Positions 568-41,020 of a DNA stretch of 42,350 bases are shown piece by piece. Each line of letters opens with the position of its first letter. The first letter of the stretch is position 1. Under the pieces are notes generated by a model. That model saw only the letters and a list, made by a program, of their open reading frames with translations. It had not been told where the DNA came from and made no database searches. Origin of the DNA: a virus (lineage: Duplodnaviria > Heunggongvirae > Uroviricota > Caudoviricetes); the IMG/VR virus record IMGVR_UViG_2636415673_000001, positions 1 through 42,350 of that record; one strand, 5' to 3'. The position numbers and the translations under genes are program-made.

Positions 568-582
568 TTAGTATAAAAAAGC
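568..582. other. attR: attR core (15-bp lambda common core O)
   Basis: ttagtataaaaaagc = reverse complement of lambda core GCTTTTTTATACTAA; identical 15-mer in same orientation at 41006..41020. Confidence 0.9.
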
Positions 583-740
583 TGAACGAGAAACGTAAAA
601 TGATATAAATATCAATATATTAAATTAGATTTTGCATAAAAAACAGACTACATAATACTGTAAAACACAACATATGCAGTCACTATGAATCAACTACTTA
701 GATGGTATTAGTGACCTGTAACAGAGCATTAGCGCAAGGT
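583..740. promoter_or_regulatory. lambda attP P arm (Int arm-type sites, IHF/Xis/Fis region)
   Basis: Sequence adjoining core matches remembered lambda P-arm; arm-type motifs cagtcactat (~677..686) and attagtgacctgtaacag (~707..724). Confidence 0.7.
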
Positions 741-925
741 GATTTTTTGTCCTCTTGCGCTAATTTTTTGTCATCAAACATGTCGTTCTCCAGAGAAGCA
801 TAAAGCCTTGCAATCAAGTGCAAAGCTTTGTGTACCAGAGTTTTCCTCATCAACTACCGCAAGTATCGATCGATTGAGACTTGGATGATAGACTTCATAC
901 CTTTCAGAACTCATTGATTAAATAA

Positions 926-1288
926 ATGTTAAATATATTTGCAAGGTACACCTCGATTGGTGTGCTGAACACACTTATACACTGGGTGGTTTTTGGTGTA
1001 TGTATCTATGCCGCGCATACCAATCAGGCTCTGGCAAACTTCGCAGGTTTCGTTGTGGCTGTGAGTTTTAGCTTCTTCGCGAATGCAAAATTCACATTCA
1101 AAGCATCAACTACAACGATGCGCTACATGTTATATGTCGGGTTCATGGGAACACTCAGTGCTACTGTTGGATGGGCTGCTGATAGATGCGCACTTCCCCC
1201 GATGATAACTCTTGTCACCTTCTCCGCCATCAGCCTGGTGTGCGGTTTCGTCTATTCAAAGTTCATTGTCTTTAGGGATGCGAAATGA
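926..1288 (+). CDS. gtrA: GtrA, bactoprenol-linked glucose translocase (flippase)
   Basis: 120-aa hydrophobic protein with GtrA-family N-terminus ([13 protein letters not shown]...); first gene of a three-gene operon overlapping gtrB by 4 nt. Confidence 0.85.
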
Positions 1289-2199
1289 AAATTTCTTTAG
1301 TCGTTCCGGTCTTTAACGAAGAGGCCACGATACCTATTTTTTATAAAACCGTGCGCGAATTTGAAGGGCTTCAGCAGCATGAAGTCGAGATAGTCTTCAT
1401 AAACGATGGCAGCAAAGACGCTACAGAATCAATTATCAACGAGCTTGCTGTTGCCGACCCGCTTGTGGTTTCGCTGTCGTTCACACGTAACTTCGGCAAA
1501 GAACCCGCCCTGTTCGCAGGTCTGGACCATGCTACCGGGGAGGCAATTATCCCGATTGACGTTGATCTGCAAGACCCTATCGAAGTTATTCCTTACTTGA
1601 TAGAGAAATGGCAGGCCGGTGCAGATATGGTTCTGGCTAAACGCTCTGACCGCTCCACTGACAGCAGGCTGAAGCGTAAATCTGCTGAGTGGTTCTATAA
1701 ACTTCATAACAAAATCAGCAACCCTAAGATAGAAGAAAATGTTGGCGACTTCCGGCTCATGTCTCGCGAAGTAGTAGAAAACATTAAGCTCATGCCAGAA
1801 CGAAACCTGTTTATGAAGGGTGTGCTGAGCTGGGTTGGTGGTCGAACCGATGTCGTAGAATATGCGCGAGCAGAACGCGTTGCAGGAAGCACAAAGTTCA
1901 ATGGATGGAAGCTCTGGAACTTAGCGCTGGAAGGGATCACTAGCTTTTCTACTTTCCCTTTGCGCATGTGGACTTATATAGGCCTGTTTGTGGCAACCTT
2001 ATCATTCCTTTATGGAGCATGGATGATTGCTGATAAATTGATGTTTGGAAATAGTGTTCCAGGTTACCCTTCTATCATTGTATCAATATTGTTTCTTGGT
2101 GGAGTTCAGTTAATAGGCATAGGAGTTCTTGGAGAGTATATAGGAAGAATTTATGTTGAAGTTAAGCAACGACCAAGATACATTCTAAAGGATAAGTAA
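1285..2199 (+). CDS. gtrB: GtrB, bactoprenol glucosyltransferase (GT2 family)
   Basis: 304 aa; N-terminal GT2 signature (VVPVFNEE...FINDGSKD), C-terminal TM helices; ATGA overlap with gtrA. Confidence 0.9.
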
Positions 2200-2200
2200 A

Positions 2201-3667
2201 ATGACTTTAAATATAAAAAAAACAGCCATATATATCATTGGATTTATATTCTTGACTTTCTTCTACGCCTCGATTTCAAAACAGATTTTGCCAAGTTCGG
2301 ATGCTGTTTCTGGACTTCTTGAGGGTAAGGACATTGCGGACGGAAATTGGACGCTTAGTGGATGGTATCTCTCTACAGTATCATTCTATTTTACAGACAT
2401 AATATGGTACGGGCTTGCTTCAAAGGTATTCTGGTACGGACAGTACCAAGCATACTGCATACCGGCAATTATGTATTCAATGGTTACATTGATGACATTT
2501 TATCTTTCAAAAGAAAGGCTTTCATCGTTATGGGCCATTTCATTTTGCGTTGCGCTGCCTTCTGGGTTTGCAGTATTAAACGTATTAATACCTGTGATAC
2601 ATGTCGGCACATATGTATCCATGTTGTTTTGCTTCATAATGTTAGACAATTTTTCCAAAACAAGATCGTTAATTTCTCTATCTCTTTATATTTTAGTGTT
2701 AGTTCTAGCTTGTTTCAGTGATGACATCATAAAGCTACTCATTATTGCACCAGTAGCAATATCATCAGTGGTTTTTATAGTAAAAACCAAAAGCCAAAAA
2801 AATCTGATCATACTAGTTGCAACTATATTTGCATATGTTGCATCAAAAATTATGACCATGTACGCAAGAGCTCATAACTGGTACATTTTGCCAGGCGTTC
2901 CAGATCCAACATTTGTTGCATTTGATGATATCCTGAATAATTTATACTTATTCGTAAAAGGATTCCTCCTATACAGTGGAGCTTTCTTCTTTGGCAAATC
3001 ACCTTCTGATATTACAGCGCTTATTTCTGTTTTTTGTTTTGTTGTAATGATTTTACTTCTTATATTAGTTGCAATGTCAGTAAAGGAAATATTCAAAACC
3101 TCCATGGTCAATATGGCTATATGTATAGCTTGTATTATAATGATACCAGCATACCTTGCAAGTAACCGTCCAATAGATGAATGGACTATAAGATATATCG
3201 TTCCATTTTTTATACTAGCACCTGTTGTTATTGGCAGATCTAACAACTCCAGAGGGTGGAAATTCATCGCATTAGGGGTTGTTACAACATTTATTCTCTT
3301 TTGTTCTATTTATATGCATGAAAAAAAAGACAATTCTAATGATATTATAAATCAGATAAAACACACTGTAAGGCAGAATAACCTCACAAACGGGTATGCA
3401 TCTTTCTGGTTTGCTTCATCAGCAAGTATAGATGGAGACATATCAATTGCTCCGATTGATGTAAACCGAGGTTTGAATATACTTGCATGCAATAAATGGT
3501 TGTCAAAAAACTATTGGTATGAGCGCGGAGGAAATTTCATAATTACAGATGATGAGGTTATGAGAAATATAACAATTAAAGAGATTGGTAATCCATCAAA
3601 GGTTATTGACGTCGGAGATAAGAAGATTTTTGTTTACGATAAAAACATTACATTCAACTGCAATTAA
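2201..3667 (+). CDS. GtrC-type serotype-specific O-antigen modifying glycosyltransferase (polytopic membrane protein)
   Basis: 488 aa, many TM segments, strongly AT-rich; third position of a gtrAB operon between attachment site and tailspike as in P22/Shigella serotype-converting phages. Confidence 0.7.
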   Translation: MTLNIKKTAIYIIGFIFLTFFYASISKQILPSSDAVSGLLEGKDIADGNWTLSGWYLSTVSFYFTDIIWYGLASKVFWYGQYQAYCIPAIMYSMVTLMTFYLSKERLSSLWAISFCVALPSGFAVLNVLIPVIHVGTYVSMLFCFIMLDNFSKTRSLISLSLYILVLVLACFSDDIIKLLIIAPVAISSVVFIVKTKSQKNLIILVATIFAYVASKIMTMYARAHNWYILPGVPDPTFVAFDDILNNLYLFVKGFLLYSGAFFFGKSPSDITALISVFCFVVMILLLILVAMSVKEIFKTSMVNMAICIACIIMIPAYLASNRPIDEWTIRYIVPFFILAPVVIGRSNNSRGWKFIALGVVTTFILFCSIYMHEKKDNSNDIINQIKHTVRQNNLTNGYASFWFASSASIDGDISIAPIDVNRGLNILACNKWLSKNYWYERGGNFIITDDEVMRNITIKEIGNPSKVIDVGDKKIFVYDKNITFNCN

Positions 3668-3698: not shown

Positions 3699-5462
3699 TC
3701 ATACACTTGTACCATCCGCCCTCTTCCATTCAGATGATACTGTGTTATACCATATTGGAAGACCTAGCGTTGTATCATAATACATCTGCCCACTGACTGG
3801 TGCTGTAGGGCGCTGCGCAGTCGGTCCACGGTTTTGATAAGTCGTCTGAGTATCATTAACACCTAGACAAGCTATAATACGGTTTTTGCGTTCTTCCGAT
3901 GTATTAAGGTAAATCTTGGTTGTCATATCGCTATCGAAAGAAACGCCATTGATGGTTATGCCGTTACAGTTATCGCCGGGGTCTGTGATCCCAAGTGGTT
4001 GCACGTAGTAACCCCCCCGGATATAAGATGTACCCATAGCACCGCCGATGACAGATACCTCTTTGCAATTTACCAACGATAGACCGCCAGTCTTATTTCC
4101 GTTGTATATATTATTCGACAAAGAGCATTGTTCAGCATTTTCCAACACCATGCCAAACTCACCACAGTAGGTGATAGTGTTTCCTGTAAACGTCAGGTTT
4201 CTAGCGCCTTTAATATTAATTCCACGGGCGTTGTTTGGTCTCCCAGCACTAATAATGTTACCGCTGATGGTAGCGTAAGCTAGACTCTCCATATCAAAAG
4301 CAGTACCGTCGATGGCATCGAAAACGCTATTTGAAATTATAACCGGATAACCCGCGAATTGGTCTGTTCCGCCAACCCCACCAAGAGTTGTACGTGTCCT
4401 TACCGCGTAATCTCCAACAAACATCGTACATTGGCTGATATATAAATCGGCGGTATCCCATACGTCAATCGGAGAGTTAGAACTGAAACACATAAGAAAC
4501 TTAGGTGATTCGCTGATGAACTCCACAGTATTTAAATCCGCACGCCCCAAGAATGGACTACCCCAACGTTCGCACCGGAAGAAGTTAACGTAATGGTAGT
4601 TGTTCATAGTAGTTTGTGCGTTATAGAAAAACACCCGATCAAACTCTAAGTTCTGGACATGACGACAAACAATCCAGTTAATCAGCACGTCGGATGATAT
4701 GACTACATCTCGGAATATGCCACCCTGTTTCCACTGACTAGCAGCCGGGCCAGACCCTGTAAGGGTAAACATAGTGAAGGTTGAATCAGAACCTAGATAT
4801 TTAATCTCTGGATTTTTTGCGTTACCAATAATTTCATATTTTGCTGGAAGCTCAATGTCTCTGGTCTTCATTCCATATATGCCAGAACCTTTCAAGTGAA
4901 TTTTTCTTGCGCCTGAAGCGAATGCCTTCTGAAAGGCTATGCTATTATCTGTTATTCCAGAATCGTCTTTGCCACCAAAGTCTTCCAAAAATACAAAATC
5001 ATCCAGCTTTTCTTGTACATTCCTGAAGACAGCACCATCAACAACAGATGGTAATCCATACTTATACTTTACTGTTTCAGGGAATGCCCCGCTTGCAAAC
5101 TCTCCCTCTAGCTCATGCCGGAACTGGTCCGGGTCATACTTGATAATGTTTGGATAGTAGAACTGCTGTGTGCCATATGCGTCATACACAGCCATTGAAT
5201 GTCCCTGTACGGTAACGAACTTTGCAATCTGTCCGTTATATACCGGATAACCAGCAGCGTTAATGATGATTGGTTGCGAAACAGGAACGTGAGAGCCGTC
5301 TTCATTCTCCATATAAACCTGAATCTGGTTTTCTGGATTTACCGGGTCAGTATCAATTTTACCGATATAAATTTTTCCATTGGCAACCGCTTTAAAAGAA
5401 CGCGCCATAGTGAAGAGTTGCGAAGGCATACTCACTACAACATTGGCTGTAATGTCTGTCAT
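3699..5462 (-). CDS. Tailspike protein: P22 gp9-type head-binding N-terminal domain fused to a different receptor-binding/beta-helix domain
   Basis: First ~110 aa match remembered P22 tailspike N-terminus ([34 protein letters not shown]...); remainder unrelated to the P22 endorhamnosidase domain. Confidence 0.85.
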
Positions 5463-5518
5463 TTAATTTGCTCCAGATACAAGAAATCGCCGCAGCATGG
5501 CCACGGTGAATTTTGGGC

Positions 5519-5543
5519 ATAAAAAAACCCAGCCGAAGCTGGG
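5519..5543 (-). terminator. Intrinsic terminator upstream of tailspike gene
   Basis: cccagc-cgaa-gctggg hairpin followed on the minus strand by a 7-U run. Confidence 0.6.
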
Positions 5544-5595
5544 TCGTTGCGTTGGTTATCTGTCAGTAGTTATGTACTGGCTGAAGGATTTGTAC

Positions 5596-5709: not shown

Positions 5710-5889
5710 ATGGCGAAAAAACCAGGTGAAAACACAGGAAAAAACGGCGGAATATACCAAGAAGTTGGCCCACGCGGCGGTAAGAAAGACAATTTTGCCA
5801 CCGTCAAGGACAACGAAAGGCTTCCACCAACAACAAAGCCAGGTCATGGCTGGGTATTGGATAAGCGAACTCCAGACAGCAAAAAGTAA
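5710..5889 (+). CDS. Small Gly/Lys-rich protein (resembles YjzC-type small stress proteins; family not verified)
   Basis: 59-aa ORF with GAGGT RBS 5 nt upstream, candidate ttgact -35 at 5645..5650, own terminator at 5896..5918. Confidence 0.55.
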   Translation: MAKKPGENTGKNGGIYQEVGPRGGKKDNFATVKDNERLPPTTKPGHGWVLDKRTPDSKK

Positions 5890-5895
5890 TAATCA

Positions 5896-5918
5896 AGCCG
5901 GTTCACTCCGGCTTTTTG
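5896..5918 (+). terminator. Intrinsic terminator after 5710..5889
   Basis: agccgg-ttcact-ccggct hairpin followed by TTTTT. Confidence 0.7.
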
Positions 5919-6268
5919 ATATGTCGCTCGCAGAACTCAACAAGCCTGCTCATTAAGTAGCAGTAAGTCTCATTAGCTCTTCCTGGTTCAACATCAACAC
6001 CGACCCTTGAGCAGATATCGAATGCCATGTGAGCGCACTCATGGGCAATAGTAGATAGTTTGCCATTGAACACGCCTATCACATGCAAAACACCATTCTC
6101 GCTGCTCATTGTATGAGACGCTCCGTTGGCATCCGAGTCCTGCACGTCCACACCAAGTTTTTGATGCAGGCGTTGCCATTCTGGAAAGTCTCTACAAAAC
6201 ACAATTGTACCGCTCTCAAAGAGCGGAACGAGCATCTTTGGTACGTTTCCAATGTTAACTTTTTTCAT
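5903..6268 (-). CDS. Small HExxH-motif protein (putative zincin-like metallopeptidase), paralog of 20924..21313
   Basis: 121 aa; HECAH motif; shares IGVF...HECAH...NETYCY...R.V blocks with the 129-aa protein at 20924..21313. Confidence 0.6.
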
Positions 6269-6298
6269 GGTATCCTGCGTAAAACTAAGGAGGTTGGT

Positions 6299-6793
6299 GT
6301 GTCTGATTCTATGAGTTACGCTGTGCTAGTTGCCGCAACTCTATTTCTGGGGATAGGGTTGCAGATTGCGTGGTTCTTTTTTTCTAGTTTTATTAAACGT
6401 AAAAGAATTGAATCAAGGATATCTGAGATTTCTATTGCTATAGGGAAAAATGCTGAAAATCCAGAGAATGAGGCCTGCGCACTGAATTACCTTAAAGAAA
6501 AGTTTTCCCCTGAAAAATTTGAAAACAGAATTACTGATGCTCTTGGATTGGTAATATCAGTAATTCATATGCCACTAAGTTTACTGATAACAGTGTGGTA
6601 CTTCGCCATGATCGCCGGAAGAATATTTGGTTTCATGAATATAGATCCTGTAGTTCTTTGGGTTCCAATGATACTGCAATTGTTGTTAAGCGTTGCTATC
6701 TTTATTTTTTCTGTTTTTATAAAAATTGTCTTTGGAAGATACCCCGGAGAAGCGAAGGGATTTAATAAAGAATTCATAAAAACTATAAAATAA
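6299..6793 (+). CDS. Polytopic inner-membrane protein, putative SieA-like superinfection exclusion protein
   Basis: AAGGAGG RBS 5 nt before GTG 6299 (alternative ATG 6311); several TM helices; AT-rich; sits between gp16 and tailspike where P22 carries sieA/immI. Confidence 0.45.
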
Positions 6794-6815: not shown

Positions 6816-8657
6816 CTACTGCCGGGTAGCTTCGTTAACTAAGAGCGGGCGCACGGCAGTAGCCGCCTGATTTAGCGCTCTTTCATAGGCTGGTGTTCCT
6901 GCTTTGGTGTTTGCCAAACGTAAGAGAGCATTCCTTGCTGCTTTTGACTCATACAAGCGCATCATTGCACCGAAACCAGCCTCAAGCCCCATTGATACGC
7001 CAAGAGTCGCAGTTGCGCCAATCGTCCTTATCCTGTTGGCTTGCGATTGCCCCGTCTGAGTTACTACATTTGCGGTGTCTGACCTTGCTGTTTGCTGTAG
7101 AACTTCATGAAGAGCATCAAGCTCTTTCATGTGCTTTCCAGAAAAAATAGTGTTGTAAATTTCACCGCCTGACTGAGATTTCAGCTTATTAACTTCAGTG
7201 ATGAACTTGGCTGGAGAGTCACCTGCCTTTTCCGCTATTTTGCTGACGTAAGCTGCACGCATAGCATCTTTCCCTTTATCATCCAATGCGCTCCAGATTC
7301 GTTTCACGTCAGATGGTTTTCTACTTAATACAACGGTATTTATAAGTTCAGGACTGGCTTCACTGCTTGCCTTGTTGAGCTTGTTAGCAATGTTTTTATT
7401 AAGCACCTTATTATAAACGTTTGCATAATCGGAATTTGCTTTAAGGTATTTTGCTGCGTCTGATGCACCTAGGTTTTTAGCAACTGCGTTACGAAGGTCT
7501 TTTGACATTGCATTCTCTACCATATTGGTAGCTGCTTTTGCCTGGTTGGGGAAGACCATAGCATCTCCCTGAACATTAGATCTAAATGCTGTTCTGTGCT
7601 GACGCAAGAGATCAAACGTAACATCCAAATCAGTTGCAGGGTTTGCTAATTCTTCACGTAGGTTACGCAAGGATGTAAGCAGGCTTTGATTAGCAGACGT
7701 CCCAAGCCGTTCCTGTCTTGCGATCGCTGTATTCAGAGCATTCATGGTGTTTGTGGTATCAACTGCGGCATTACCCATTTTATTGGTGACGTCATTGATA
7801 ACAGCGCCAGCGGCATCCTTCCGCCCCCTTAACGTGGTGATCAGAGATTTCACCACATCATCAGGGTTGTACTCACCAAAACGGTCAAAATAATTGCTTA
7901 CCAGCTTACTACGCGTTGCATATTGCTCCGCTCTCTTTGAGCCTGTCCCGAGCAAAGCCCCCTCGGCATCCTGAGTAAGGCCGCGAGTGAAAGCATTTTT
8001 CGGCGGGATAACATCAGATGTCATTGGTGTCACGCCCATCGATTCTGATGTGGCAATTTTCTTCGCCACTTCTGGCGCAATATCACCTTTTATAGCCGTT
8101 ATTCCACGCCCTATTCCCTTTGCTGCTGCGGAAAGAACCCCCTGAGCGGCAAGGTTAACTCCGGCATTTTTGGCTGCATTTTGTGCGAAATCGCCTTTCT
8201 GATTTGCGGCCTCTGCCAGTGATCCAATAGCCATGCTTCCTGCCGTTCCAACTCCTGGAACTAAATACCCACCAATTGTTTCACCGGCTTGCGCGTAGGG
8301 GTCTGTCGGTCTGTCTACTGGACGATAAACATCATCCAAAACCTTGGGTCCACCAAGCCCCTGACTGATTGCATTAATCAGGCTTGCGCCGCCCTGCAAT
8401 ACGTCAAATGGTATGTTTACCAGACCACGACCTGCCTGTTCTGCAATTTGCCCTGCACTTTGACCACCAGTGAGCCAATCGCCAGCTTGTTGCATCAATG
8501 AAGGTTCTTCACGTGCTGGTTCATTATTGGCCTGATTAACTGTTTGTTGCTGAACAGCCTGACCAGCAAAATACTCATCAATGGCGGTGCCAATATCTTC
8601 CGTGCTCGTACCATCAGGGAAGGTAAATGTCTTACCGTTTGCAGTTACTTTCATCAT
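6816..8657 (-). CDS. Ejection (internal virion) protein gp16
   Basis: 613 aa; matches P22 gp16 in size and order (after gp20). Confidence 0.85.
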
Positions 8658-32718: not shown

Positions 32719-32749
32719 CAGCCTCACAACTCTAAAACACACAACAATA

Positions 32750-32890: not shown

Positions 32891-32911
32891 TACTAACCAC
32901 CATGAAGGTGA

Positions 32912-33387: not shown

Positions 33388-33858
33388 ATGACAAAATCAT
33401 GGAGCGTACCTTTTCCTGAATCAGAAACTGAACATGATGGAATGCCTGTTTTCTGGAGATTCCAGGCGACAGTTGAAGAAGATGGGATAAAAATATTCGC
33501 ACTTCAATATATAGCTTTTCATCAGACAGAGCATTATGCATGGTTGGTTCCTGCGCATTGGATTGTTAATTTTAAACCAGCACCAAATCAGTGGTTACAG
33601 GAATGGAAACAAAGGAGAAATAGATATGCAATTAAGAAAGTAGCAAAAAATGCAGAAAGATCTTTTGCATTCCCAACGAAGAAACTTGCCATTGAGAGTT
33701 TATTGCGCCGGAAGAAATACCATTTAATGAGAATCAAACAAGATTTGGCTGTTGTATCAACTCTTGTTGATGGGATGAAGAATATTGATACATCAACACC
33801 AGATATTGAATATAACTTTGGGCACAACCAAGAAACAGAAAATTGGGTATTTTATTAG
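33388..33858 (+). CDS. AT-rich hypothetical protein (moron) immediately downstream of N
   Basis: 156 aa; GAGG RBS; visibly AT-rich codon usage; followed by stem-loop and terminator; no family recognised. Confidence 0.6.
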   Translation: MTKSWSVPFPESETEHDGMPVFWRFQATVEEDGIKIFALQYIAFHQTEHYAWLVPAHWIVNFKPAPNQWLQEWKQRRNRYAIKKVAKNAERSFAFPTKKLAIESLLRRKKYHLMRIKQDLAVVSTLVDGMKNIDTSTPDIEYNFGHNQETENWVFY

Positions 33859-33872
33859 TACGAGTAAGCACT

Positions 33873-33900
33873 GTGTATTCATTCCAACGAGTGAATACAC
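33873..33900 (+). other. Stable stem-loop without U-tract
   Basis: 9-bp stem gtgtattca/tgaatacac with 9-10-nt loop, 15 nt after the moron stop. Confidence 0.4.
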
Positions 33901-33962
33901 GGAGCAATGTCGCTCGTAACTAAACAGGAGCCGACTTGTTCTGATTATTGGAAATCTTCTTT

Positions 33963-33987
33963 GCCCTCCAATGTGAGGGCCTTTTTA
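33963..33987 (+). terminator. Intrinsic terminator (tL1-like)
   Basis: gccctc-caatgt-gagggc hairpin followed by CTTTTTAT. Confidence 0.7.
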
Positions 33988-34052
33988 TATGCATACCAAT
34001 AACGCTTCACTCGAGGCGTTTTCGTTATGCAATCAAACAGAAGGAGCATCCT

Positions 34053-34223
34053 ATGCAACAGTTCGCTATTGCAGGGGCGGCATCGGTTCGCCCTTTCAAC
34101 CCGATTTTATCGGTGCAGCATTCACGAAAAAATATTTTAACCGGAGCAGACTTTAAACAACCTCGCGTTAAGAGCTTGCTGGATCGTCTTGTTGAGTTTC
34201 TGAATCAAAAGGTACAGCCATGA
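34053..34223 (+). CDS. CIII-like small protein (putative FtsH inhibitor)
   Basis: 56 aa; AAGGAG RBS; loose resemblance to lambda CIII (MQ.FAIAG...L.D.L..LNQ); assignment tentative. Confidence 0.4.
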   Translation: MQQFAIAGAASVRPFNPILSVQHSRKNILTGADFKQPRVKSLLDRLVEFLNQKVQP

Positions 34224-34384
34224 AAAAACCAACTTACGAGGAACGGGAAGAAGCCCTGAAAGAGCTTAGAAGAATGGCTTTCGCCAGACGCACTAACTCT
34301 CACAACTGCGGCCCATTTCAGTACTCTGATTTATGCGAGGACATCATTGAGGTAACTCAACTGATTAAGGTCGTTAAGCAATGA
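34220..34384 (+). CDS. Small hypothetical early protein
   Basis: 54 aa; ATGA-coupled to upstream ORF. Confidence 0.4.
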   Translation: MKKPTYEEREEALKELRRMAFARRTNSHNCGPFQYSDLCEDIIEVTQLIKVVKQ

Positions 34385-34539
34385 GCATTGCGGATACATG
34401 GTCAGACGAAGAATTCATTCGTCAGATGAAAGATTTAATCGGTAACGAAGGAGATATTCATGTCACTTGCAACCACAGTGAAGGAGAGCAAGTTACAGAG
34501 ACGCATGTACACACAGAAAGCTCTCTGGTATCGCCATAA
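34381..34539 (+). CDS. Small hypothetical early protein
   Basis: 52 aa; ATGA-coupled. Confidence 0.35.
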   Translation: MSIADTWSDEEFIRQMKDLIGNEGDIHVTCNHSEGEQVTETHVHTESSLVSP

Positions 34540-34640
34540 TGGCGACCGCGAAGGAATGCGGGTATGCCTTAATTTGTCCCGAGTCGAAGTATTAAATCAG
34601 CGTTATTTCCTTGGGCCATGTCCATTCTGAGAACAATCAT

Positions 34641-35246
34641 ATGAGCAAAGAATTTTACGCAAGACTGGCAGCTATTCAGGAGAATCTGAACGCGCCAAAG
34701 AATCAGTACAACTCATTCGGTAAATATAAATACAGAAGCTGCGAAGACATTCTTGAAGGCGTTAAGCCGTTACTGAATGGCCTGTTTTTATCAATCAGCG
34801 ATGAAGTTGTGTTGATTGGTGATCGGTATTATGTGAAAGCCACGGCAACTATTACCGATGGCGAAAACAGTCATACGGCAACCGCTCTTGCACGAGAGGA
34901 AGAAAGCAAGAAAGGAATGGATTCTGCACAAGTTACGGGAGCCACAAGCTCTTATGCACGCAAGTATTGCCTCAATGGTTTGTTCGGCATTGATGATGCG
35001 AAAGATGCAGATACCGACGAGCATAAACATCAGCAGAACGCAGCAGCAAAGCAATCAAAACCATCACCTACACCTGAACAGGTTCTAAAAGCATTCACTG
35101 ACGCAGCATTGCAGAAAAACACCGTGGAAGAGCTTAAACAGGCGTTCGCCAAAGCGTGGAAGATGCTCGAAGGCACACCGGAGCAGCACAAAGCGCAGGA
35201 CGTTTACAACATCAGACGAGACGAATTAGAAGGAGCTGCTGCTTAA
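34641..35246 (+). CDS. erf: Erf single-strand annealing recombinase
   Basis: N-terminus MSKEFYARLAAIQENLNAPKNQYNSFGKYKYRSCEDILEGVKP matches P22 Erf. Confidence 0.9.
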   Translation: MSKEFYARLAAIQENLNAPKNQYNSFGKYKYRSCEDILEGVKPLLNGLFLSISDEVVLIGDRYYVKATATITDGENSHTATALAREEESKKGMDSAQVTGATSSYARKYCLNGLFGIDDAKDADTDEHKHQQNAAAKQSKPSPTPEQVLKAFTDAALQKNTVEELKQAFAKAWKMLEGTPEQHKAQDVYNIRRDELEGAAA

Positions 35247-35629
35247 TGGCACATTCGATTACTGTAAGACTAAACAAGCCCGCAAGAGAGTTTCAGGCCG
35301 GGGAAAATATCGGATTCAACATCCGTGCTGGCGTTCAGTATTACGATCGCCAGACAAAAAAGAAAGAATGGACAAACTACAGCGCCGTTGTATTTGCCAA
35401 GCCGGGAGCGCAAGCGGATTACTACCGTAGTGTTCTTGTTGAAGGTGGCATTGTAGAAATTACCGGAGAAAACATCAGGGTTGATGTTTATCAGGGGCAA
35501 AATGGTCAATCAATCACTCTTGAATTACTGAATGCAAAGATTGGATTTGCAACTTCAGGAAACAGCCAACAGCAGCAAAGTAGCAATCATCAAAATCATC
35601 CTGAATACGACGATTCAATTCCCTTCTAA
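35246..35629 (+). CDS. SSB-like protein with canonical acidic C-terminal tip (DDSIPF)
   Basis: 127 aa; stop-start overlap with erf (TAATG); AGGAG RBS; C-terminal ...PEYDDSIPF resembles the E. coli SSB tail DDDIPF. Confidence 0.6.
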   Translation: MAHSITVRLNKPAREFQAGENIGFNIRAGVQYYDRQTKKKEWTNYSAVVFAKPGAQADYYRSVLVEGGIVEITGENIRVDVYQGQNGQSITLELLNAKIGFATSGNSQQQQSSNHQNHPEYDDSIPF

Positions 35630-35652
35630 AGTAGCAACATAAGGATTCCATT

Positions 35653-35949
35653 ATGCCAGCGCCTCTGTATGGTGCGGATGACCCACGCCGCTGTTCCGGC
35701 AATTCCGTATCGGAAGTGCTGGATAAATTCAGAAAAAACTACGATCGAATAATGTCTCTACCGCAGGAATCGAAAGAGGAAAAGGAATTTCGCCACTGTA
35801 TATGGCTTGCAGAGAAAGAAGAACGAGAGCGAATTTACCAGACATCAATCCGACCATTCCGCAAAGCCACATATACCCACTTCCCTGAATATATCGACCC
35901 GCGCCTGCGTAATTACCGCTCACGCTATGGCGCTATCAGTAATGACTGA
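35653..35949 (+). CDS. Hypothetical early protein (size and position compatible with a P22 Abc-type anti-RecBCD protein; not verified)
   Basis: 98-aa ORF with RBS. Confidence 0.5.
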
Positions 35950-35959
35950 GGAATTTACC

Positions 35960-36124
35960 ATGAGAGGACTTGCATACAATCCCGGCATTCTTCCGGCAGA
36001 AATGATTATTCGCCAACGCGTAAAGCCAATGCCATCGAGAGAGGAATTGCTTAAGAGAAATTCTTTTCCTTCAGTGAATCAAAACAAATATCTGAATGCG
36101 ATGTGGCGGAGTGGGAAGAAATGA
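35960..36124 (+). CDS. Small hypothetical protein
   Basis: 54 aa; GAGGA RBS. Confidence 0.4.
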
Positions 36125-36627
36125 AACAAATGTCACTAATTGAGATGGATGGATTTCTGAAAGGTAAATGCATCCCACGAGATTTAAAGGTTAACGAAAC
36201 AAACGCTGAATATCTGGTGCGTAAATTTGCTGAAGCGGAGGCCAAGATTTCGGCTCTGTCCGAAGACCACCAGAAAGCGATTGAGTCAATTAAGCAGGCT
36301 GATGCAGCTGTTAAATTGGCACACGAGAAGTTTTCAGCGCTTGCGGCGGAGAATGCGGGGCTGAATAAATTTATCGCACAGAGTTGCTACGTGTTTGATG
36401 GCGAGCAGGATGAGCTATCTGATGCGTATATCTGCGCAATAGACGGAAAGATGCCGCAAACCCCAGCCACCGATGCTTTCCTGGCTGAAATTGAACGCAA
36501 AGCAATCCGCAAGTTCATTAACAGCATTGAATACATCCTGCGTGACAAGTTGTCACCGTATGACACCGAAGAGATGCTTGAAGCTATGCGTATTTTTCTG
36601 GAAGAACAGGGAGGTGAGCAAAAATGA
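36121..36627 (+). CDS. Hypothetical early protein
   Basis: 168 aa from ATG overlapping upstream stop (ATGA). Confidence 0.55.
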
Positions 36628-36929
36628 CGATCACAAAACAACGGGTAGAAGAAATCATATCCCGCATTGAAATGTATGGGCATGGCGCAGGGTATACCGC
36701 CGAAGAGGTTTATGACCTGGCTGTACTGGCGCTGAATTTATCAAATATCGCAAACCTGAAGCGATACGAGCTTGATATGGGTGGTTGTGACTCGTGCGGT
36801 CAGGATTGTGGCGCTGACATGACTGAAGATTCTGATGGCGATTATGTCCTGTTTGATGACGTAGTTAAGTTGTTTGAGTTTGATACATTCGAAAGCCCAG
36901 CAAAGGAGGCAACCAGTGAGCAAGATTGA
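36624..36929 (+). CDS. Hypothetical acidic protein
   Basis: 101 aa; GGGAGGTGAG RBS. Confidence 0.55.
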   Translation: MTITKQRVEEIISRIEMYGHGAGYTAEEVYDLAVLALNLSNIANLKRYELDMGGCDSCGQDCGADMTEDSDGDYVLFDDVVKLFEFDTFESPAKEATSEQD

Positions 36930-37779
36930 CTATCAGGCACTGCGTGAGGCGGCAGAGAAAGCAACGTGTGGCGAGTGGTCGCTCGAATATGGAAAGGGCC
37001 GATTTGATGGTGATGATGCACTAATTCATCGTGAAGTTGCTGGATATATTCCTATTTGCAGAATTGAAGGAGCGCATCCTGAAAGTGGTTTCGATGAAGA
37101 TTTCCAAATGGAACAGCAGGCCAATGCTGAATTCATCGCCGCAGCCAATCCAGCTACCGTGCTGGCATTACTGGATGAACTGGAAAGAAACCAGCAATAC
37201 ATCAAATCCCGCGACCAGGAGAACGAGGATATTGCGCTAACGGTTGGGAGGCTGCTAATCGAAAACGGCCAGCTTGTTGCCGATACGCTACGCCACTTAG
37301 CTGATAACGAAATCGACTCTGATTATTTTGCTATCACCTCAACGAATGAGAACGGTACTGAAATTGATCATGAGATGGCTATTACCGATTACGCACTGCA
37401 AGCTGCCGGAACTGTAGACGAGTTGATAGCAGCGCTGGAAGCCGCAGAGAAGCGCAACGCAAAATTACAAAGCGAGAATGCATACATCCGCAACAGGTAC
37501 AAAGAACTGGACCTATTAATCGGGAAAAACATTCTGGTCATGCAGGCTGCGATTATCGAATGGCAGGCAACTGGCGACGCTAAGAGCGGACTGGCATGGA
37601 TTTATAACACACTGTTTGGCCCTGGCGAATTGCCGGACGAATCTGAGAAAGATGCTCAGGCCTACTTTAATCGCAAATATGCACCGATTGACGAAAAGCT
37701 CATGGAGCTTCACAAGTGGTTTTGGGAACAAAGTGAAGCCGAGCGCGCCGCTGGTATTCACATAAAAGGAGGTGAGTAG
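36916..37779 (+). CDS. Ea22-like early protein
   Basis: GTG start with AAGGAGG RBS 6 nt upstream; lambda ea22-family-like architecture in the expected position. Confidence 0.6.
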   Translation: MSKIDYQALREAAEKATCGEWSLEYGKGRFDGDDALIHREVAGYIPICRIEGAHPESGFDEDFQMEQQANAEFIAAANPATVLALLDELERNQQYIKSRDQENEDIALTVGRLLIENGQLVADTLRHLADNEIDSDYFAITSTNENGTEIDHEMAITDYALQAAGTVDELIAALEAAEKRNAKLQSENAYIRNRYKELDLLIGKNILVMQAAIIEWQATGDAKSGLAWIYNTLFGPGELPDESEKDAQAYFNRKYAPIDEKLMELHKWFWEQSEAERAAGIHIKGGE

Positions 37780-37784
37780 TGCGT

Positions 37785-37952
37785 GTGGCATGTATCGGCT
37801 TGTTACCGTACCCGACTCGTTTTTGGGCTTCTGCGCTAATTGCAAAGCCGCATGTCCTGATGGCTGACAGGATCATTCCGGCACCGAAACGCCGTACAGG
37901 CGTTGCAGCGGCGAAACGAGCAGCAAAGAAACGCAGGAGAGCAAAACGATGA
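37785..37952 (+). CDS. Small Lys/Arg-rich hypothetical protein
   Basis: 55 aa from GTG after AAGGAGGTGAG. Confidence 0.3.
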   Translation: MACIGLLPYPTRFWASALIAKPHVLMADRIIPAPKRRTGVAAAKRAAKKRRRAKR

Positions 37953-38137
37953 AAAACCGTAAAGCAAAAATCCTATTAGCTCGCAGAAACGGTGTTGGGG
38001 TCTGGCGATGGGTGAGGATTAGTAACAGACGGTTGAGGCTTACGGGGTTTTTAGGGGTGATGGGGCACAGCTGTTGCAAAAAGCCCAGCGCGGCGCAAAA
38101 CCGATGGAAAAACCACTTGCGCACTAAAGGAGAGTGA
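37949..38137 (+). CDS. Small basic hypothetical protein
   Basis: 62 aa; CAGGAGAG RBS. Confidence 0.4.
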   Translation: MKNRKAKILLARRNGVGVWRWVRISNRRLRLTGFLGVMGHSCCKKPSAAQNRWKNHLRTKGE

Positions 38138-38138
38138 G

Positions 38139-38330
38139 ATGAACGGACAAATATCAATTGTTCGACCGGGAGCATGTGACGATCGCGAGATACGAATGAT
38201 TATTCGTCTGGCAATGGGGAAAACAATAACTGCTCTCATTACTCCTGAAAATCTCGCATTAGCATTAACAGGAAAGTCAGACCTGCCAGTAGAGCTAAAG
38301 CTGCGAAACGTTGAGATTAAAGTGAAATAG
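38139..38330 (+). CDS. Small hypothetical protein
   Basis: 63 aa; AAAGGAGAG RBS. Confidence 0.45.
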   Translation: MNGQISIVRPGACDDREIRMIIRLAMGKTITALITPENLALALTGKSDLPVELKLRNVEIKVK

Positions 38331-38332
38331 TT

Positions 38333-38878
38333 ATGAATACTCTTACCAAAGAATGGTTACAGAACACGATTACCAGCATTGAGTCAGCACGGGATGAAAT
38401 ACCGTTCGGACTCGATGAAGATCAAAACAACATGCTTACCGCATTAAAAATTGCACTGGCATCGCTGGAAGCCGAACCTGTAAGCCAGACTTACAACTTG
38501 CCAGAATTAATCGAAGGGATGGAAGTTTCCATTGATGTAAGCACTTGTGATGCTGATTTAGGTAATCGCTATTTCGGCACCGTCACCGAGGCGTTAGAAC
38601 TTGATACTGCCAAGAATGGTTACATCCTCCTGGTTCAGGACGCAGAGCCAAACTTCGATGTAAATGGCAACTCTCCGGTAACTCCGGATGGTTGGATAAG
38701 CTGTAGTGAGCGAATGCCGAACGACGCGCAGTGGTGCGTAGTGAACACAGAATACGGGTATTACGTGCAATGCTGGTCTGAAGGTCAAGGGTGGCTTGGT
38801 GATGATACCAGCATCCCTGAATGCGATGTAATCAATTGGATGCCGCTACCAGAACCACCGCAGGAGGTGAATCCGTGA
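38333..38878 (+). CDS. DUF551-domain protein
   Basis: 181 aa; C-terminal W..C....P......INWMPLPEPP motif shared with 21705..21923. Confidence 0.6.
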   Translation: MNTLTKEWLQNTITSIESARDEIPFGLDEDQNNMLTALKIALASLEAEPVSQTYNLPELIEGMEVSIDVSTCDADLGNRYFGTVTEALELDTAKNGYILLVQDAEPNFDVNGNSPVTPDGWISCSERMPNDAQWCVVNTEYGYYVQCWSEGQGWLGDDTSIPECDVINWMPLPEPPQEVNP

Positions 38879-39102
38879 GTAAATCAGAATTCCTCCAAAA
38901 GTTAGACTCGCTCGCTTCAGAGTGTCACGCACTGGCCTGCCAGCTAGACATTGGCGATGAACGCACTGAGATGTTTGAAATATACAACGTGCTGAGAAGC
39001 CTTGGACGTAGCGGATATGCAAGCCAGATAAGCAAAGGTACCAACCCACTGTTATGGGCGGTTGACGATAACGACGATGATTGGGATGAGGATGATGAGT
39101 GA
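38875..39102 (+). CDS. Small acidic hypothetical protein
   Basis: GTG start after CAGGAGGTGA; acidic C-terminus DDNDDDWDEDDE. Confidence 0.45.
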   Translation: MSKSEFLQKLDSLASECHALACQLDIGDERTEMFEIYNVLRSLGRSGYASQISKGTNPLLWAVDDNDDDWDEDDE

Positions 39103-39386
39103 TGGCTAACCTTCAACTGGCAGTTAACGGTGAATACTTCGACCAGATGAAGTCAGGTGAGAAAACGGAAGAGTATCGCCTGTGTAATAACTACTGGAAT
39201 AAGCGAATCATGTTCCGGGAATATGACCGCCTGATTATCACAAAGGGATATCCGAAGCGCGACGATTCCAGCCGCAGAATTGATATTCCGTATGACGGAT
39301 ATGAAATCAAGACAATCACACATCCGCACTTTGGCGATAAACCGGTAAAGGTGTTCGCGATAAAGGTAAATATCGGCAATAAATAA
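39102..39386 (+). CDS. Hypothetical protein
   Basis: 94-aa ORF overlapping upstream stop. Confidence 0.5.
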   Translation: MANLQLAVNGEYFDQMKSGEKTEEYRLCNNYWNKRIMFREYDRLIITKGYPKRDDSSRRIDIPYDGYEIKTITHPHFGDKPVKVFAIKVNIGNK

Positions 39387-39387
39387 C

Positions 39388-39417
39388 AATCCTCGCACTC
39401 GCGGGGATTTATTTTAT
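39388..39417 (+). terminator. Intrinsic terminator
   Basis: aatcctcgc-actc-gcggggatt hairpin (one G-U) followed by TATTTTAT. Confidence 0.55.
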
Positions 39418-39458
39418 CTGAACTCGCTACGGCGGGTTTTGTTTTATGGAGATGATAA

Positions 39459-39626
39459 ATGCACTTCCGAGTCACAGGTGAATGGAATGGAGAACCATTC
39501 AACAGAGTTATCGAAGCAGAGAACATCAACGACTGCTATGACCACTGGATGCTGTGGGCGCAGATAGCACATGCAGACGTAACCAATATTCGAATTGAAG
39601 AACTGAAAGAACACCAAGCCGCCTGA
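39459..39626 (+). CDS. orf55-like small protein
   Basis: 55 aa, below the ORF-track cutoff; GGAG RBS; same position as lambda orf55 upstream of xis. Confidence 0.5.
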   Translation: MHFRVTGEWNGEPFNRVIEAENINDCYDHWMLWAQIAHADVTNIRIEELKEHQAA

Positions 39627-39639
39627 TGGCGGTTTTTTC
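39618..39639 (+). terminator. Intrinsic terminator
   Basis: ccgcc-tgat-ggcgg hairpin followed by TTTTTTC. Confidence 0.6.
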
Positions 39640-39665
39640 TTGCGTGTAATTGCGGAGACTTTGCG

Positions 39666-39884
39666 ATGTACTTAACACTTCAGGAGTGGAACGCACGCCA
39701 GCGGCGCCCAAGAAGCCTTGAAACAGTTCGTCGATGGGTGCGCGAATGCAGGATATTCCCTCCTCCGGTTAAGGATGGAAGAGAGTATCTGTTCCACGAA
39801 TCAGCGGTAAAGGTTGACTTAAATCGACCAGTAACAGGTAGCCTTTTGAAGAGGATCAGAAATGGGAAGAAGGCGAAGTCATGA
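39666..39884 (+). CDS. xis: Excisionase Xis
   Basis: 72 aa matching lambda Xis. Confidence 0.95.
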   Translation: MYLTLQEWNARQRRPRSLETVRRWVRECRIFPPPVKDGREYLFHESAVKVDLNRPVTGSLLKRIRNGKKAKS

Positions 39885-40932
39885 GCGCCGGGATTTACCC
39901 CCTAACCTTTATATAAGAAACAATGGATATTACTGCTACAGGGACCCAAGGACGGGTAAAGAGTTCGGATTAGGCAGAGACAGGAGGATAGCAATCACTG
40001 AAGCTATACAGGCCAACATTGAGTTATTTTCAGGACACAAACACAAGCCTCTGACAGCGAGAATCAACAGTGATAATTCTGTTACGTTACATTCATGGCT
40101 TGATCGCTACGAAAAAATCCTCGCCAGCAGAGGAATCAAGCAGAAGACACTCATAAATTACATGAGCAAAATTAAAGCAATAAGGAGGGGTCTGCCTGAT
40201 GCTCCACTTGAAGACATCACCACAAAAGAAATTGCGGCAATGCTCAATGGATACATAGACGAGGGCAAGGCGGCGTCAGCCAAGTTAATCAGATCAACAC
40301 TGAGCGATGCATTCCGAGAGGCAATAGCTGAAGGCCATATAACAACAAACCCGGTCGCTGCCACTCGCGCAGCAAAATCAGAGGTAAGGAGATCAAGACT
40401 TACGGCTGACGAATACCTGAAAATTTATCAAGCAGCAGAATCATCACCATGTTGGCTTAGACTTGCAATGGAACTGGCTGTTGTTACCGGGCAGCGAGTT
40501 GGTGATTTATGCGAAATGAAGTGGTCTGATATCGTAGATGGATATCTTTATGTCGAGCAAAGCAAAACAGGCGTAAAAATTGCCATCCCAACAGCATTGC
40601 ATGTTGATGCTCTCGGAATATCAATGAAGGAAACACTTGATAAATGCAAAGAGATTCTTGGCGGAGAAACCATAATTGCATCTACTCGTCGCGAACCGCT
40701 TTCATCCGGCACAGTATCAAGGTATTTTATGCGCGCACGAAAAGCATCAGGTCTTTCCTTCGAAGGGGATCCGCCTACCTTTCACGAGTTGCGCAGTTTG
40801 TCTGCAAGACTCTATGAGAAGCAGATAAGCGATAAGTTTGCTCAACATCTTCTCGGGCATAAGTCGGACACCATGGCATCACAGTATCGTGATGACAGAG
40901 GCAGGGAGTGGGACAAAATTGAAATCAAATAA
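39862..40932 (+). CDS. int: Integrase Int (tyrosine recombinase)
   Basis: 356 aa matching lambda Int; overlaps xis 3' end. Confidence 0.95.
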   Translation: MGRRRSHERRDLPPNLYIRNNGYYCYRDPRTGKEFGLGRDRRIAITEAIQANIELFSGHKHKPLTARINSDNSVTLHSWLDRYEKILASRGIKQKTLINYMSKIKAIRRGLPDAPLEDITTKEIAAMLNGYIDEGKAASAKLIRSTLSDAFREAIAEGHITTNPVAATRAAKSEVRRSRLTADEYLKIYQAAESSPCWLRLAMELAVVTGQRVGDLCEMKWSDIVDGYLYVEQSKTGVKIAIPTALHVDALGISMKETLDKCKEILGGETIIASTRREPLSSGTVSRYFMRARKASGLSFEGDPPTFHELRSLSARLYEKQISDKFAQHLLGHKSDTMASQYRDDRGREWDKIEIK

Positions 40933-41005
40933 TGATTTTATTTTGACTGATAGTGACCTGTTCGTTGCAACAAATTGATAAGCAATGCTTTTTTATAATG
41001 CCAAC
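40933..41005. promoter_or_regulatory. lambda attP P' arm (Int arm-type and IHF sites)
   Basis: Matches remembered lambda P' arm; arm-type motif ctgatagtgacctg. Confidence 0.8.
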
Positions 41006-41020
41006 TTAGTATAAAAAAGC
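41006..41020. other. attL: attL core (15-bp lambda common core)
   Basis: ttagtataaaaaagc, identical to 568..582; int-proximal junction. Confidence 0.9.

Follow-up and report, generated by a model that had tools for sequence, protein, structure and literature searches.

That lambdoid mosaics may combine a P22-type virion with integration, control and lysis of lambda type is well documented, and one such mosaic, found at the very site considered here, has been induced in the laboratory. This is phiHS3, a P22-like phage of E. coli HS, for which integration upstream of ybhC, excision and induction by mitomycin C were all established by experiment (bioRxiv 10.64898/2026.05.19.726188). The Lederbergvirus vB_EcoP-720R6 (ON470605.1) uses the same lambda attB, and its deposited prophage record includes the bio genes and ybhB. 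In P22 itself, the stretch from gene 3 to gene 9 precedes gtrCBA, attP, int and xis, the order found in the present element, but P22 integrates at thrW by means of an unrelated Int. The ybhB-ybhC site also harbours the gtr genes of serogroup O44, which belongs to a group (O17/O44/O73/O77/O106) whose members differ by prophage gtr genes (PMC7685785, PMC10304059); in E. coli 042 (O44), the gtr genes published as the basis of the O44 side branch are carried by a prophage with an SfV/Mu-like myovirus virion module.

The window, i.e., the whole stretch of 42,350 nucleotides that we analysed, corresponds to the ybhB to ybhC interval of the chromosome of E. coli LSC52, a urine isolate from Brazil whose record is a WGS-derived chromosome. 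We consider it very probable that the element within it is the 40,438-bp genome of a P22-like (Lederbergvirus) temperate phage, inserted by a lambda-type Int through recombination between a lambda-identical attP and the classical attB (ybhB/ybhC), in the orientation of the lambda prophage, and following the life cycle proposed below. The core of the sequence-only reading, a podovirus of P22 type using lambda-like integration, excision, antitermination and holin/endolysin, is supported. The architecture has precedent in vB_EcoP-720R6 (GenBank), the induced phiHS3 and the prophage of strain ST3, and the prophage as such is routine, an ordinary complete-looking P22/lambda mosaic. Identity with an already described phage was considered and rejected, the architecture being known but the coverage too low: phage records cover at best 56% or less of the left half and 66% or less of the right half, and among the other complete E. 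coli genomes coverage of either half stays below 80%. The earlier caveat that this might be a described phage with identical modules, thus, holds in part only, as no record has the exact mosaic, but the same kind of composition has been deposited and shown to be inducible.

Comparison with the closest records reads as a clean, textbook case of module exchange, in which the att-int ends and the gtr-tailspike end are constant and the interior is swapped. vB_EcoP-720R6 covers 40% of the prophage at 96% nucleotide identity; its int/xis are of lambda type (99–100% aa identity), its cI and cro are identical to those found here (100%), the O-like initiator and the tRNA-Thr/Asn pair that follows tR′ are shared, and its S and R are lambda-like, but it differs in its coat, portal and terminase, which are of Sf6/CUS-3-like type (25–34% aa identity or no match), in its long tail-fibre-type spike, in its Q and its split primase-helicase, and in having no gtrABC. 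E. coli phage APC_JM3.2 (MG197996.1; grouped with IME10, Dewey and CurroJimenez) covers 45% at 95.7%, with Q, S, R and the primase-helicase 100% identical; it has another integrase and att site (1179-bp int, AlpA-type excisionase), differs in immunity, recombination genes, tailspike receptor domain and needle tip, and is without a gtr cassette. phiHS3, by description, carries a seroconversion-type gene at the position of gtr, but belongs to the CUS-3/720R6 clade and bears a dual tailspike. With P22 the prophage shares sieA, Erf, Abc2 and gp23/Q-type late control, in addition to TerS and pac, whereas P22 differs in its gp18/gp12 replication genes, its gp24, which is not an N-type antiterminator, its gp19 lysozyme and its endorhamnosidase tailspike. 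The parts shared with lambda amount to 13.8% of the prophage at 96.9% identity and comprise attP, tI/sib, int, xis, orf55, N, nutL, nutR, Q, pR′, tR′, S and R, as well as the first ~82 Rz codons, ninE, ninF and the C-terminal domain of cI; the lambda head and tail genes, immunity, O/P, exo/bet/gam, rexAB and cos are absent.

The attachment sites are where the resemblance to lambda is closest to complete. The 15-bp lambda core GCTTTTTTATACTAA (− strand), claimed earlier for both junctions, occurs in exactly two exact copies, at 568–582 and 41006–41020, with none expected from shuffled sequences. The first copy is attR (P-O-B′; 568–582, −), adjoining ybhB with a B′ flank that is the canonical attB sequence; it is followed by the lambda P arm (P1, H1, P2, X1, X2, F, H2) and the tI/sib hairpin (583–837, −), 96.4% identical to lambda 27470–27742. 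The tI/sib RNA lies on the + strand (728–769) and folds as in lambda (z-score −5.6). At the other end, attL (B-O-P′; 40933–41020, −) consists of the P′ arm and the second core adjoining ybhC, and is 100% identical to lambda. When attP is rebuilt from both junctions, its identity to that of lambda is 100% between about −165 and +125 relative to the core, which takes in all Int arm sites as well as the region of the IHF, Xis and Fis sites; the 274-bp P-side match to lambda has 10 differences, all outside the lambda-identical ~165 bp next to the core. xis (39666–39884, +) and int (39862–40932, +) encode proteins of 72 and 356 aa that match lambda Xis and Int over their full length at 98.6% and 99.4% aa identity, so that the near-lambda arms, int and xis of the sequence-only reading are borne out. 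The location at the classical lambda attB is also confirmed, as in silico excision (flank, one core, flank) yields a sequence that agrees at 100% with the ybhB-ybhC spacer of E. coli in which the site is uninterrupted; the empty attB is found in 3,487 of the 5,426 complete E. coli genomes. The lambda int-xis-attP-tI/sib module is complete and predicted to be capable of recombination. attL and attR are present once each, and the element size is compatible with a P22-type head.

The virion genes, by contrast with lambda, are those of a P22-type phage. All 13 genes are in P22 order (TerS-TerL-portal-scaffold-coat-gp4-gp10-gp26-gp14-gp7-gp20-gp16-tailspike); from TerS to gp16 they are collinear with P22 at 49–100% aa identity, and most align essentially over their full length, the exceptions being gp20, gp26 and the tailspike, which align N-terminally only (residues 1–235, 1–137 and 1–122, respectively). 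The coat, scaffold, portal, TerL and TerS genes (14300–20651, −) encode proteins 73–100% identical to those of P22 and 99–100% identical, over their full length, to those of APC_JM3.2. TerS is identical to P22 gp3 at 162 of 162 residues, and the exact 22-bp P22 pac site lies inside terS (20363–20384); terS with pac is ~99% identical to Salmonella P22 at the nucleotide level, the adjoining virion genes only ~78%. Next come gp14, the tail needle gp26, gp10, gp4 and a small orf69-like gene (10825–14255, −); the needle has an Sf6-type knob, its needle-knob domain PF16532 being matched over 175 of 175 positions. The ejection proteins (6816–10822, −) are gp16-like (6816–8654), gp20-like (8654–10120) and gp7-like (10130–10822). 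Compared with P22, gp16 (76%) and gp7 (83%) match over their full length and gp20 (49%) over residues 1–235 of 488 only, and both the gp20-like and gp16-like proteins have essentially full-length PHROG profile matches. The earlier claim of a P22-type virion module with pac, thus, stands from TerS to gp16 and for pac itself, which is exact, but has to be amended for the tailspike, P22-like in residues 1–122 only. That erf is P22-type was correct, Erf being 74.6% identical to P22 Erf.

The region next to the tailspike gene retains a remnant of the P22 sieA/immI region (5710–6793), made of an orf59a-like gene (5710–5889, +), a phrog_1365 ORF (5903–6268, −) and sieA (6299–6793, +), which are 98%, 100% and 91% identical in aa to the P22 region, with the PHROG family “SieA-like”. 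mnt, arc, sar and ant are absent: window position 5579/5580 joins P22 15977 to 14549, P22 14550–15976 being missing. The immI region (mnt-arc-ant) is a feature of P22 itself and not of the whole P22-like group. A complete immI is not required for P22-like membership, since APC_JM3.2 has no annotated mnt/arc/ant and 720R6 has Mnt only.

The tailspike (3699–5462, −) is a two-part protein, with a P22-type head-binding domain (aa 1–113) joined to a beta-helix resembling TSP3 of phage CBA120 (aa 114–586). The N-terminus matches PF09008 over positions 1–113 of 113 (E = 6e-67), as well as the N-domains of the P22 and Sf6 tailspikes in the PDB; residues 114–586 match PDB entries 6NW9/5W6F (E = 2.5e-220), and residues 114–587 are 65.6% identical to CBA120 orf212 (TSP3). 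CBA120 TSP3 cleaves the O77 antigen (PMC8825819), and LSC52 carries wzx and wzy of the O17/O44/O73/O77/O106 cluster. By analogy, the substrate of our tailspike would be an O77-group O-antigen, keeping in mind that at 65.6% identity to TSP3 the substrate could differ.

Between the P arm and the tailspike gene lies a gtrABC cassette that had been overlooked: positions 583–3667 hold the lambda P arm, tI/sib and gtrABC, without virion genes. gtrA (926–1288, +) and gtrB (1285–2199, +), annotated by PGAP as GtrA family and GT2, are the conserved part of such O-antigen glucosylation cassettes, and their products (flippase and bactoprenol glucosyltransferase) are 76.7% and 86.8% identical to those of P22. 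The third gene (2201–3667, +) encodes a 488-aa candidate for the serotype-specific GtrC-type glucosyltransferase, as indicated by its position, size and weak homology. At least nine hydrophobic segments are present; an alignment of 480 aa with the product of the third gtr gene that E. coli 042 (O44) carries at this attB shows 32% identity, and there is no match in Pfam or in a tblastn search of phage records. The 042 prophage has the same site, the same attR-P arm-gtrA-gtrB junction (~94–97% nucleotide identity) and a host of the same O-antigen cluster group, and differs in its virion module and in this third gene, only 32% identical.

The GtrC allele occurs in 25 of the 5,426 complete E. coli genomes, and the closed genomes M00057, M11957 and M7424 of the STEC O77g:H18 ST69 outbreak cluster carry the same allele at 99.5% identity. 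Members of the O77 group are set apart by prophage-encoded glucosylation alone; in our literature search, gtr genes of this group were named for O44 only, and no serogroup is assignable to this allele. We put at about even chances the proposal that the GtrC candidate places a side-branch glucose on the mannan backbone of the O77 type, defining O17, O73, O106 or an undescribed variant, and that the prophage, as a live phage, seroconverts O77-group hosts, its tailspike recognising the backbone in its unmodified or partly modified form and its gtr genes blocking re-adsorption. If this is true, the allele is a genetic marker splitting “O77g”, which present genome-based serotyping cannot resolve; it offers a testable candidate for one missing O77-group determinant and, hence, for finer genome-based serotyping. 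The practical value of the prophage lies in this cargo, and its less routine feature is that tailspike and gtr set both appear to fit the O77-group surface antigen of the host. As for expression of the cassette, a consensus scan of positions 400–1000 (+ strand) gave no clear sigma-70 promoter for gtrA and no terminator either; read-through from ybhB into gtr is unlikely, because the lambda tI hairpin folds between ybhB and gtrA. Phase variation of the P22 style by Dam/OxyR was also considered and set aside, with only one of four GATC sites left.

The regulatory genes were earlier described as lambda regulation, a description that fits antitermination (N/nut and Q/qut) but not immunity. The immunity region (31333–33379, mixed strands) comprises cII, nutR, cro, OR, cI (32023–32718), pL/OL (32844–32877), nutL and N (33053–33379). 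Over its C-terminal 136 residues cI is almost the same as lambda cI, with VQAGMF, GNSM and FKKL among the shared motifs; the protein keeps the Ala-Gly cleavage site and the Ser/Lys catalytic pair (S24, LexA/cI type), and cleavage is predicted. Residues 1–95 align poorly to lambda and represent a foreign DNA-binding domain, cro has no detectable similarity to lambda cro, cII is 49% identical to that of lambda, and the operator motif TACGAT(A/T)TGTACTTT, common to OR and OL, differs from that of lambda. The hybrid cI with its own cro and operators gives an immunity specificity other than that of lambda. The replication genes (28311–31298, −) are a primase-helicase with Toprim and DnaB_C domains (Pfam; 28311–30191), an O-like initiator (30299–31159), which in its N-terminal half shares 49% identity with lambda O, and a DUF2740 gene; the same proteins, at 100% identity, are encoded by 720R6 and APC_JM3.2. 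Judging from these comparisons, both the immunity region and the replication genes are neither lambda nor P22.

The N/Q circuit is of the lambdoid type, with N, exact nut sites, Q and pR′-qut-tR′. The boxA and boxB of nutL (32912–32942) and nutR (31691–31722) are exact lambda matches; Q (24910–25533) is accompanied by pR′, qut and tR′ (about 24638–24870; whole region 24638–25533, −), a stretch ~98% identical to lambda. The aa identity to lambda reaches 99.5% for Q, 99.1% for S, 98.7% for R, 90.7% for N and 66.9% for Rz. Q and S are, however, not specific evidence of lambda ancestry, since their identity to P22 gp23 and gp13 is also high (97.6% and 89.6%). The lysis cassette (22990–24237, −) contains S (23914–24237), R (23454–23930), Rz (22990–23457) and an embedded Rz1 (23031–23237), a lipoprotein ORF with a lipobox and a full-length PHROG match. 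The lambda nucleotide match ends at lambda 46213, which leaves a lambda-like Rz over its first ~82 codons only, and Rz and Rz1 are hybrid; the near-lambda label given earlier to N, nut, Q, pR′/tR′ and S/R/Rz is, therefore, kept for all but Rz, with N at 90.7%.

From this gene content we infer that the prophage is inducible. Upon induction, SOS-activated RecA would promote cleavage of cI, early and then late transcription would be antiterminated by N and then by Q, the genome would be excised by Int and Xis and would replicate, and headful packaging would initiate at pac. Virions would then bind and cut O77-type mannan O-antigen via the TSP3-like tailspike; in the lysogen, GtrA, GtrB and GtrC would glucosylate the same O-antigen (side branch), leading to a change of serogroup and hindering further adsorption.

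A prophage complete in its genes may nonetheless be defective through an undetected point or regulatory lesion, in which case we would be looking at a fixed seroconverting island instead of a live phage. Decay is common in this prophage group, given that six genomes with the same gtrC-tailspike junction carry an IS3-family element in the tailspike, that the strain ST3 prophage has two pseudogenes and that 720R6 has a split primase-helicase; moreover, host-level selection alone could retain the gtr cassette. Against this, the essential genes all match functional phages or profiles over their full length, with 92–100% identity to their counterparts in APC_JM3.2, P22 or lambda, the cis sites (attL, attR, nutL, nutR, pR′, tR′ and pac) are exact or nearly so, and the cI cleavage residues are present. 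The earlier statement that no gene is truncated also survives, as we found none and PGAP calls no pseudogene in the region, missense and regulatory lesions being invisible to such a comparison. We, thus, regard a defective prophage as unlikely, and favour the intact temperate phage. Very improbable is the idea that the element was not one phage genome at entry but an in situ recombinant (of an SfV-like gtr prophage already at attB with a P22-like phage that arrived later) or a product of misassembly among the several LSC52 lambdoid prophages, as could be suspected from the attR-P arm-gtrAB segment, 94–97% common to myovirus-type prophages of E. coli 042 and CNREC_004-43, and from the six places in the LSC52 record that match the prophage early region: the gtrC-tailspike combination circulates as a unit, its junction being found at 93.7–96% identity in ~11 other genomes and, in strain ST3, within a complete prophage of P22-like type whose ends are the same, the single attL/attR and the 40.4 kb suit one P22-type genome, and lambdoid mosaics would normally arise by such in situ recombination anyway.

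The pL operon cargo (33388–39626, +) includes a 156-aa protein of unknown function, cIII, arf-like ORFs, erf, an SSB-like gene, abc2 and ea-region genes; the nin region (25530–28234, −) includes ninH, RusA, DUF1364, NinF, NinE, NinB and small ORFs. Among the ORFs of unknown function, the only PADLOC results were a DpdH-like match, located in the Ea22-like protein, and a marginal hit for the GIY-YIG protein, neither of which makes up a defence system. Just downstream of tR′, ARAGORN and Rfam identify tRNA-Thr(TGT) and tRNA-Asn(GTT) (24480–24635, −), a pair that, like the missing immI region, had escaped the earlier description; it replaces lambda 44781–44945, and the lambda alignment breaks there. 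Finally, a phrog_1365 paralog, DUF2560, DUF551 and a GIY-YIG nuclease are encoded between the lysis and packaging modules (20924–22645, −), where an int-alpA RNA motif is also found (21940–22002).

The window is found at 100% identity in the chromosome of E. coli LSC52, a human urine isolate from Brazil (NZ_CM137002.1, 2828952-2871301), with ybhB at its left end (1-477) and ybhC at its right end (41067-42350). Exactly two copies of the lambda overlap core GCTTTTTTATACTAA are present, both on the − strand (568-582 and 41006-41020), when none is expected from shuffled sequences. On the − strand, the junction on the right, which adjoins int and ybhC, reads B-O-P′ (attL), and the one on the left, which adjoins ybhB, reads P-O-B′ (attR); the prophage has the orientation of the lambda prophage between gal and bio. 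Rebuilt from the two inner arms, attP shows no difference from lambda over a stretch reaching about 165 bp out on the P side and at least 125 bp out on the P′ side; mismatches occur only farther away. The outer flanks with one core restore the canonical attB, a 363-bp product with 100% identity to the ybhB-ybhC spacer as found uninterrupted in other strains. Because the junctions are exact, attP is lambda-identical and attB is restored, we read the insertion as a precise Int-mediated event; the phage genome measures 40,438 bp. The sequence-only reading, which had placed the element at the classical lambda attB, with the exact 15-bp core at both junctions and near-lambda P and P′ arms, is thus confirmed on integration. 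The same site is unoccupied in 3,487 of 5,426 complete E. coli genomes.

In nucleotide alignments, 13.8% of the element matches lambda, with 96.9% identity. The matches comprise the P arm and tI/sib hairpin (564-837), S, R and the first part of Rz (23210-24478; 96.9%), Q with pR′, qut and tR′ (24638-25534; 97.4%), a nutL stretch (32878-32965), N (33027-33354; 93%), the segment from orf55 through xis and int to the P′ arm (39380-41020; 98.5%), ninE and ninF, and the 3′ 405 bp of cI. At the protein level, identity to lambda reaches 99.4% for Int, 98.6% for Xis, 99.5% for Q, 99.1% for S, 98.7% for R and 90.7% for N, and boxA and boxB of both nutL and nutR match lambda exactly; all these parts, along with pR′/tR′, had rightly been called near-lambda. 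For Rz, this holds for the first part of the gene only, the whole protein being 66.9% identical, and the embedded Rz1, a 68-codon lipoprotein ORF (23031-23237, −), is not the lambda allele. P22 gp23 and gp13 come close to Q and S as well (97.6% and 89.6% identity, respectively), so that these two are best seen as alleles common among lambdoid phages and not as signs of lambda ancestry.

The claim of lambda regulation stands for N/nut and Q/pR′/tR′ but not for immunity. The repressor is chimeric: over its C-terminal 136 residues it matches lambda cI almost exactly, with the Ala-Gly cleavage site and the Ser and Lys residues retained, but its DNA-binding domain differs; cro has no match in lambda or P22, and OR and OL have in common a 15-bp operator motif that is not lambda's. 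The same cI and cro occur, at 100% identity, in the Lederbergvirus vB_EcoP-720R6 (ON470605.1). The replication initiator is 49% identical to lambda O in its N-terminal half, and its partner is a 626-aa Toprim/DnaB-type primase-helicase; the earlier reading needs correction on replication too, and it had left out the gtrABC genes, the loss of immI and the tRNAs. The latter, tRNA-Thr and tRNA-Asn, replace 164 bp of lambda directly after tR′.

Gene order in the segment 20651-5462 is that of P22: TerS, TerL, portal, scaffold, coat, orf69-like, gp4, gp10, needle gp26, gp14, gp7, gp20, gp16, sieA with two small ORFs, and tailspike. Proteins of this region are 49-100% identical to P22 (just 33% for the small orf69-like gene), and the proteins of the packaging and head module (TerS, TerL, portal, scaffold and coat) share 99-100% identity with Escherichia phage APC_JM3.2 (MG197996.1). 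TerS matches P22 gp3 at 162/162 residues and an exact copy of the 22-bp P22 pac site lies at 20363-20384. The proposed P22 type of TerS and pac is therefore verified, as is that of Erf (74.6% identical to P22's), to which we add Abc2 (91.8%) and DUF2737/orf56; extended to the whole virion module, it holds except for the tailspike, which is P22-like only in its first ~120 residues. The tail needle has an Sf6-type knob. At the nucleotide level, terS (20163-20657) is about 98.6% identical to Salmonella P22, versus about 78% for the adjoining virion genes, an identity step suggestive of a recent exchange between genera; a sharp mosaic joint lies at terS, near 20387/20388. Alignment to P22 reveals that the prophage lacks the whole of immI, with mnt, arc, sar and ant. 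In the window, this clean deletion lies within 5494-5580, with 5579/5580 joining P22 positions 15977 and 14549.

Between attR and the tailspike lie gtrA, gtrB and a third, 488-aa gene (2201-3667, +), the GtrC-type candidate, whose product is polytopic and 32% identical to that of the third gtr gene in the prophage of E. coli 042 (an O44 strain). It has no match among phage records and is found at ≥99.3% identity in 25 complete genomes, among them M00057, M11957 and M7424 of the STEC O77g:H18 ST69 cluster. A lambda tI/sib terminator hairpin, with a lambda-type fold, lies between ybhB and gtrA (728-925, +), so that host read-through into gtr should stop there. Of the P22 gtr phase-variation region, one of four GATC sites is left, at 868, and no + strand promoter for gtr matching the consensus was found in 400-1000.

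Tailspike residues 1-113 form the P22 head-binding domain, and residues 114-586 match the solved structure of the CBA120 tailspike TSP3 (E 2.5e-220, 65.6% identity), which cleaves the O77 O-antigen (PMC8825819). The O-antigen cluster of LSC52 encodes Wzy and Wzx of the O17/O44/O73/O77/O106 family; this locus (1427204-1435038, between galF and gnd) carries two glycosyltransferases, manC, manB, wzy and wzx. The five serogroups have one backbone and one gene cluster in common, are inseparable by genome typing and are distinguished by glucose branches from prophage gtr genes, a basis confirmed for O44 only, with its genes in a prophage at ybhB-ybhC; the O73 enzymes were not yet identified as of 2023 (PMC7685785, PMC10304059, PMC13188871). 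The coherent reading is that of a putative seroconverting phage suited to the O77 group, with GtrC as the candidate transferase. The prophage itself is of low general interest; the pairing of candidate GtrC and tailspike is a modest, testable lead.

PGAP flagged no pseudogene in the prophage region, every essential gene has an approximately full-length match to a functional phage protein or PHROG profile, and all cis sites checked are exact or nearly so; we therefore see no lesion, in agreement with the earlier statement that no gene is truncated, and we infer that the prophage would be inducible. Unannotated gaps hold full-length small phage ORFs missing from the RefSeq annotation, namely two in the ea region (37779-37952 and 37949-38137, +) and two arf-like “recombinase” ORFs (34381-34539 and 34460-34630, +); Rz1 is likewise missing. 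Decay is frequent among relatives, and insertional inactivation of the tailspike recurs within the lineage. An IS3-family element (ISEc31 or IS3) interrupts the same tailspike gene in six of them (NZ_AP029046.1, NZ_AP045049.1, NZ_AP045053.1, NZ_AP045057.1, NZ_AP045061.1 and NZ_CP060073.1).

The architecture is already known, although the exact mosaic is unique among the collections searched (phage records and complete E. coli genomes), with no second copy; an already described phage of identical module composition was thus not found there. A unique exact mosaic is usual among lambdoid phages. Precedents include vB_EcoP-720R6, deposited as a prophage record including bio genes and ybhB and classed by GenBank as Lederbergvirus, whose int and xis are of the lambda type and which shares its immunity and tRNA pair with this prophage; and strain ST3, whose P22-like prophage occupies the same site with the same attR-gtrABC-tailspike and xis-int ends but another coat type. 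For the P22-like phiHS3, a 2026 preprint (bioRxiv 10.64898/2026.05.19.726188) reports integration upstream of ybhC, excision and mitomycin C induction. Of 5,426 genomes, 90 carry the ybhB-attR-P arm-gtrAB junction, which E. coli 042 and CNREC_004-43 have joined to an SfV-like myovirus.

Several accessory loci complete the element. A 156-aa ORF (phrog_1636; 33388-33858, +) directly follows N in the pL operon, a position where lambdoid phages often have exclusion genes; it has no Pfam or PADLOC match and is absent from lambda, P22, 720R6 and APC_JM3.2. Neither of two phrog_1365 paralogs has a Pfam or PADLOC match: one (5903-6268, −) is 100% identical to an unannotated P22 ORF (13861-14223) located between gene 16/sieA and gene 9, and the other (20924-21313, −), 35% identical, lies upstream of terS. 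A gene for a 161-aa GIY-YIG/T5orf172 nuclease (22160-22645, −) lies between the modules for lysis and packaging; it is not found in the same four reference phages and may be a homing-endonuclease-type insert. The spacer between this gene and a DUF551 gene contains, distant from int, an int-alpA RNA motif (Rfam RF02996; 21940-22002, −) that scores 45.1 bits, the gathering score being 35.8.
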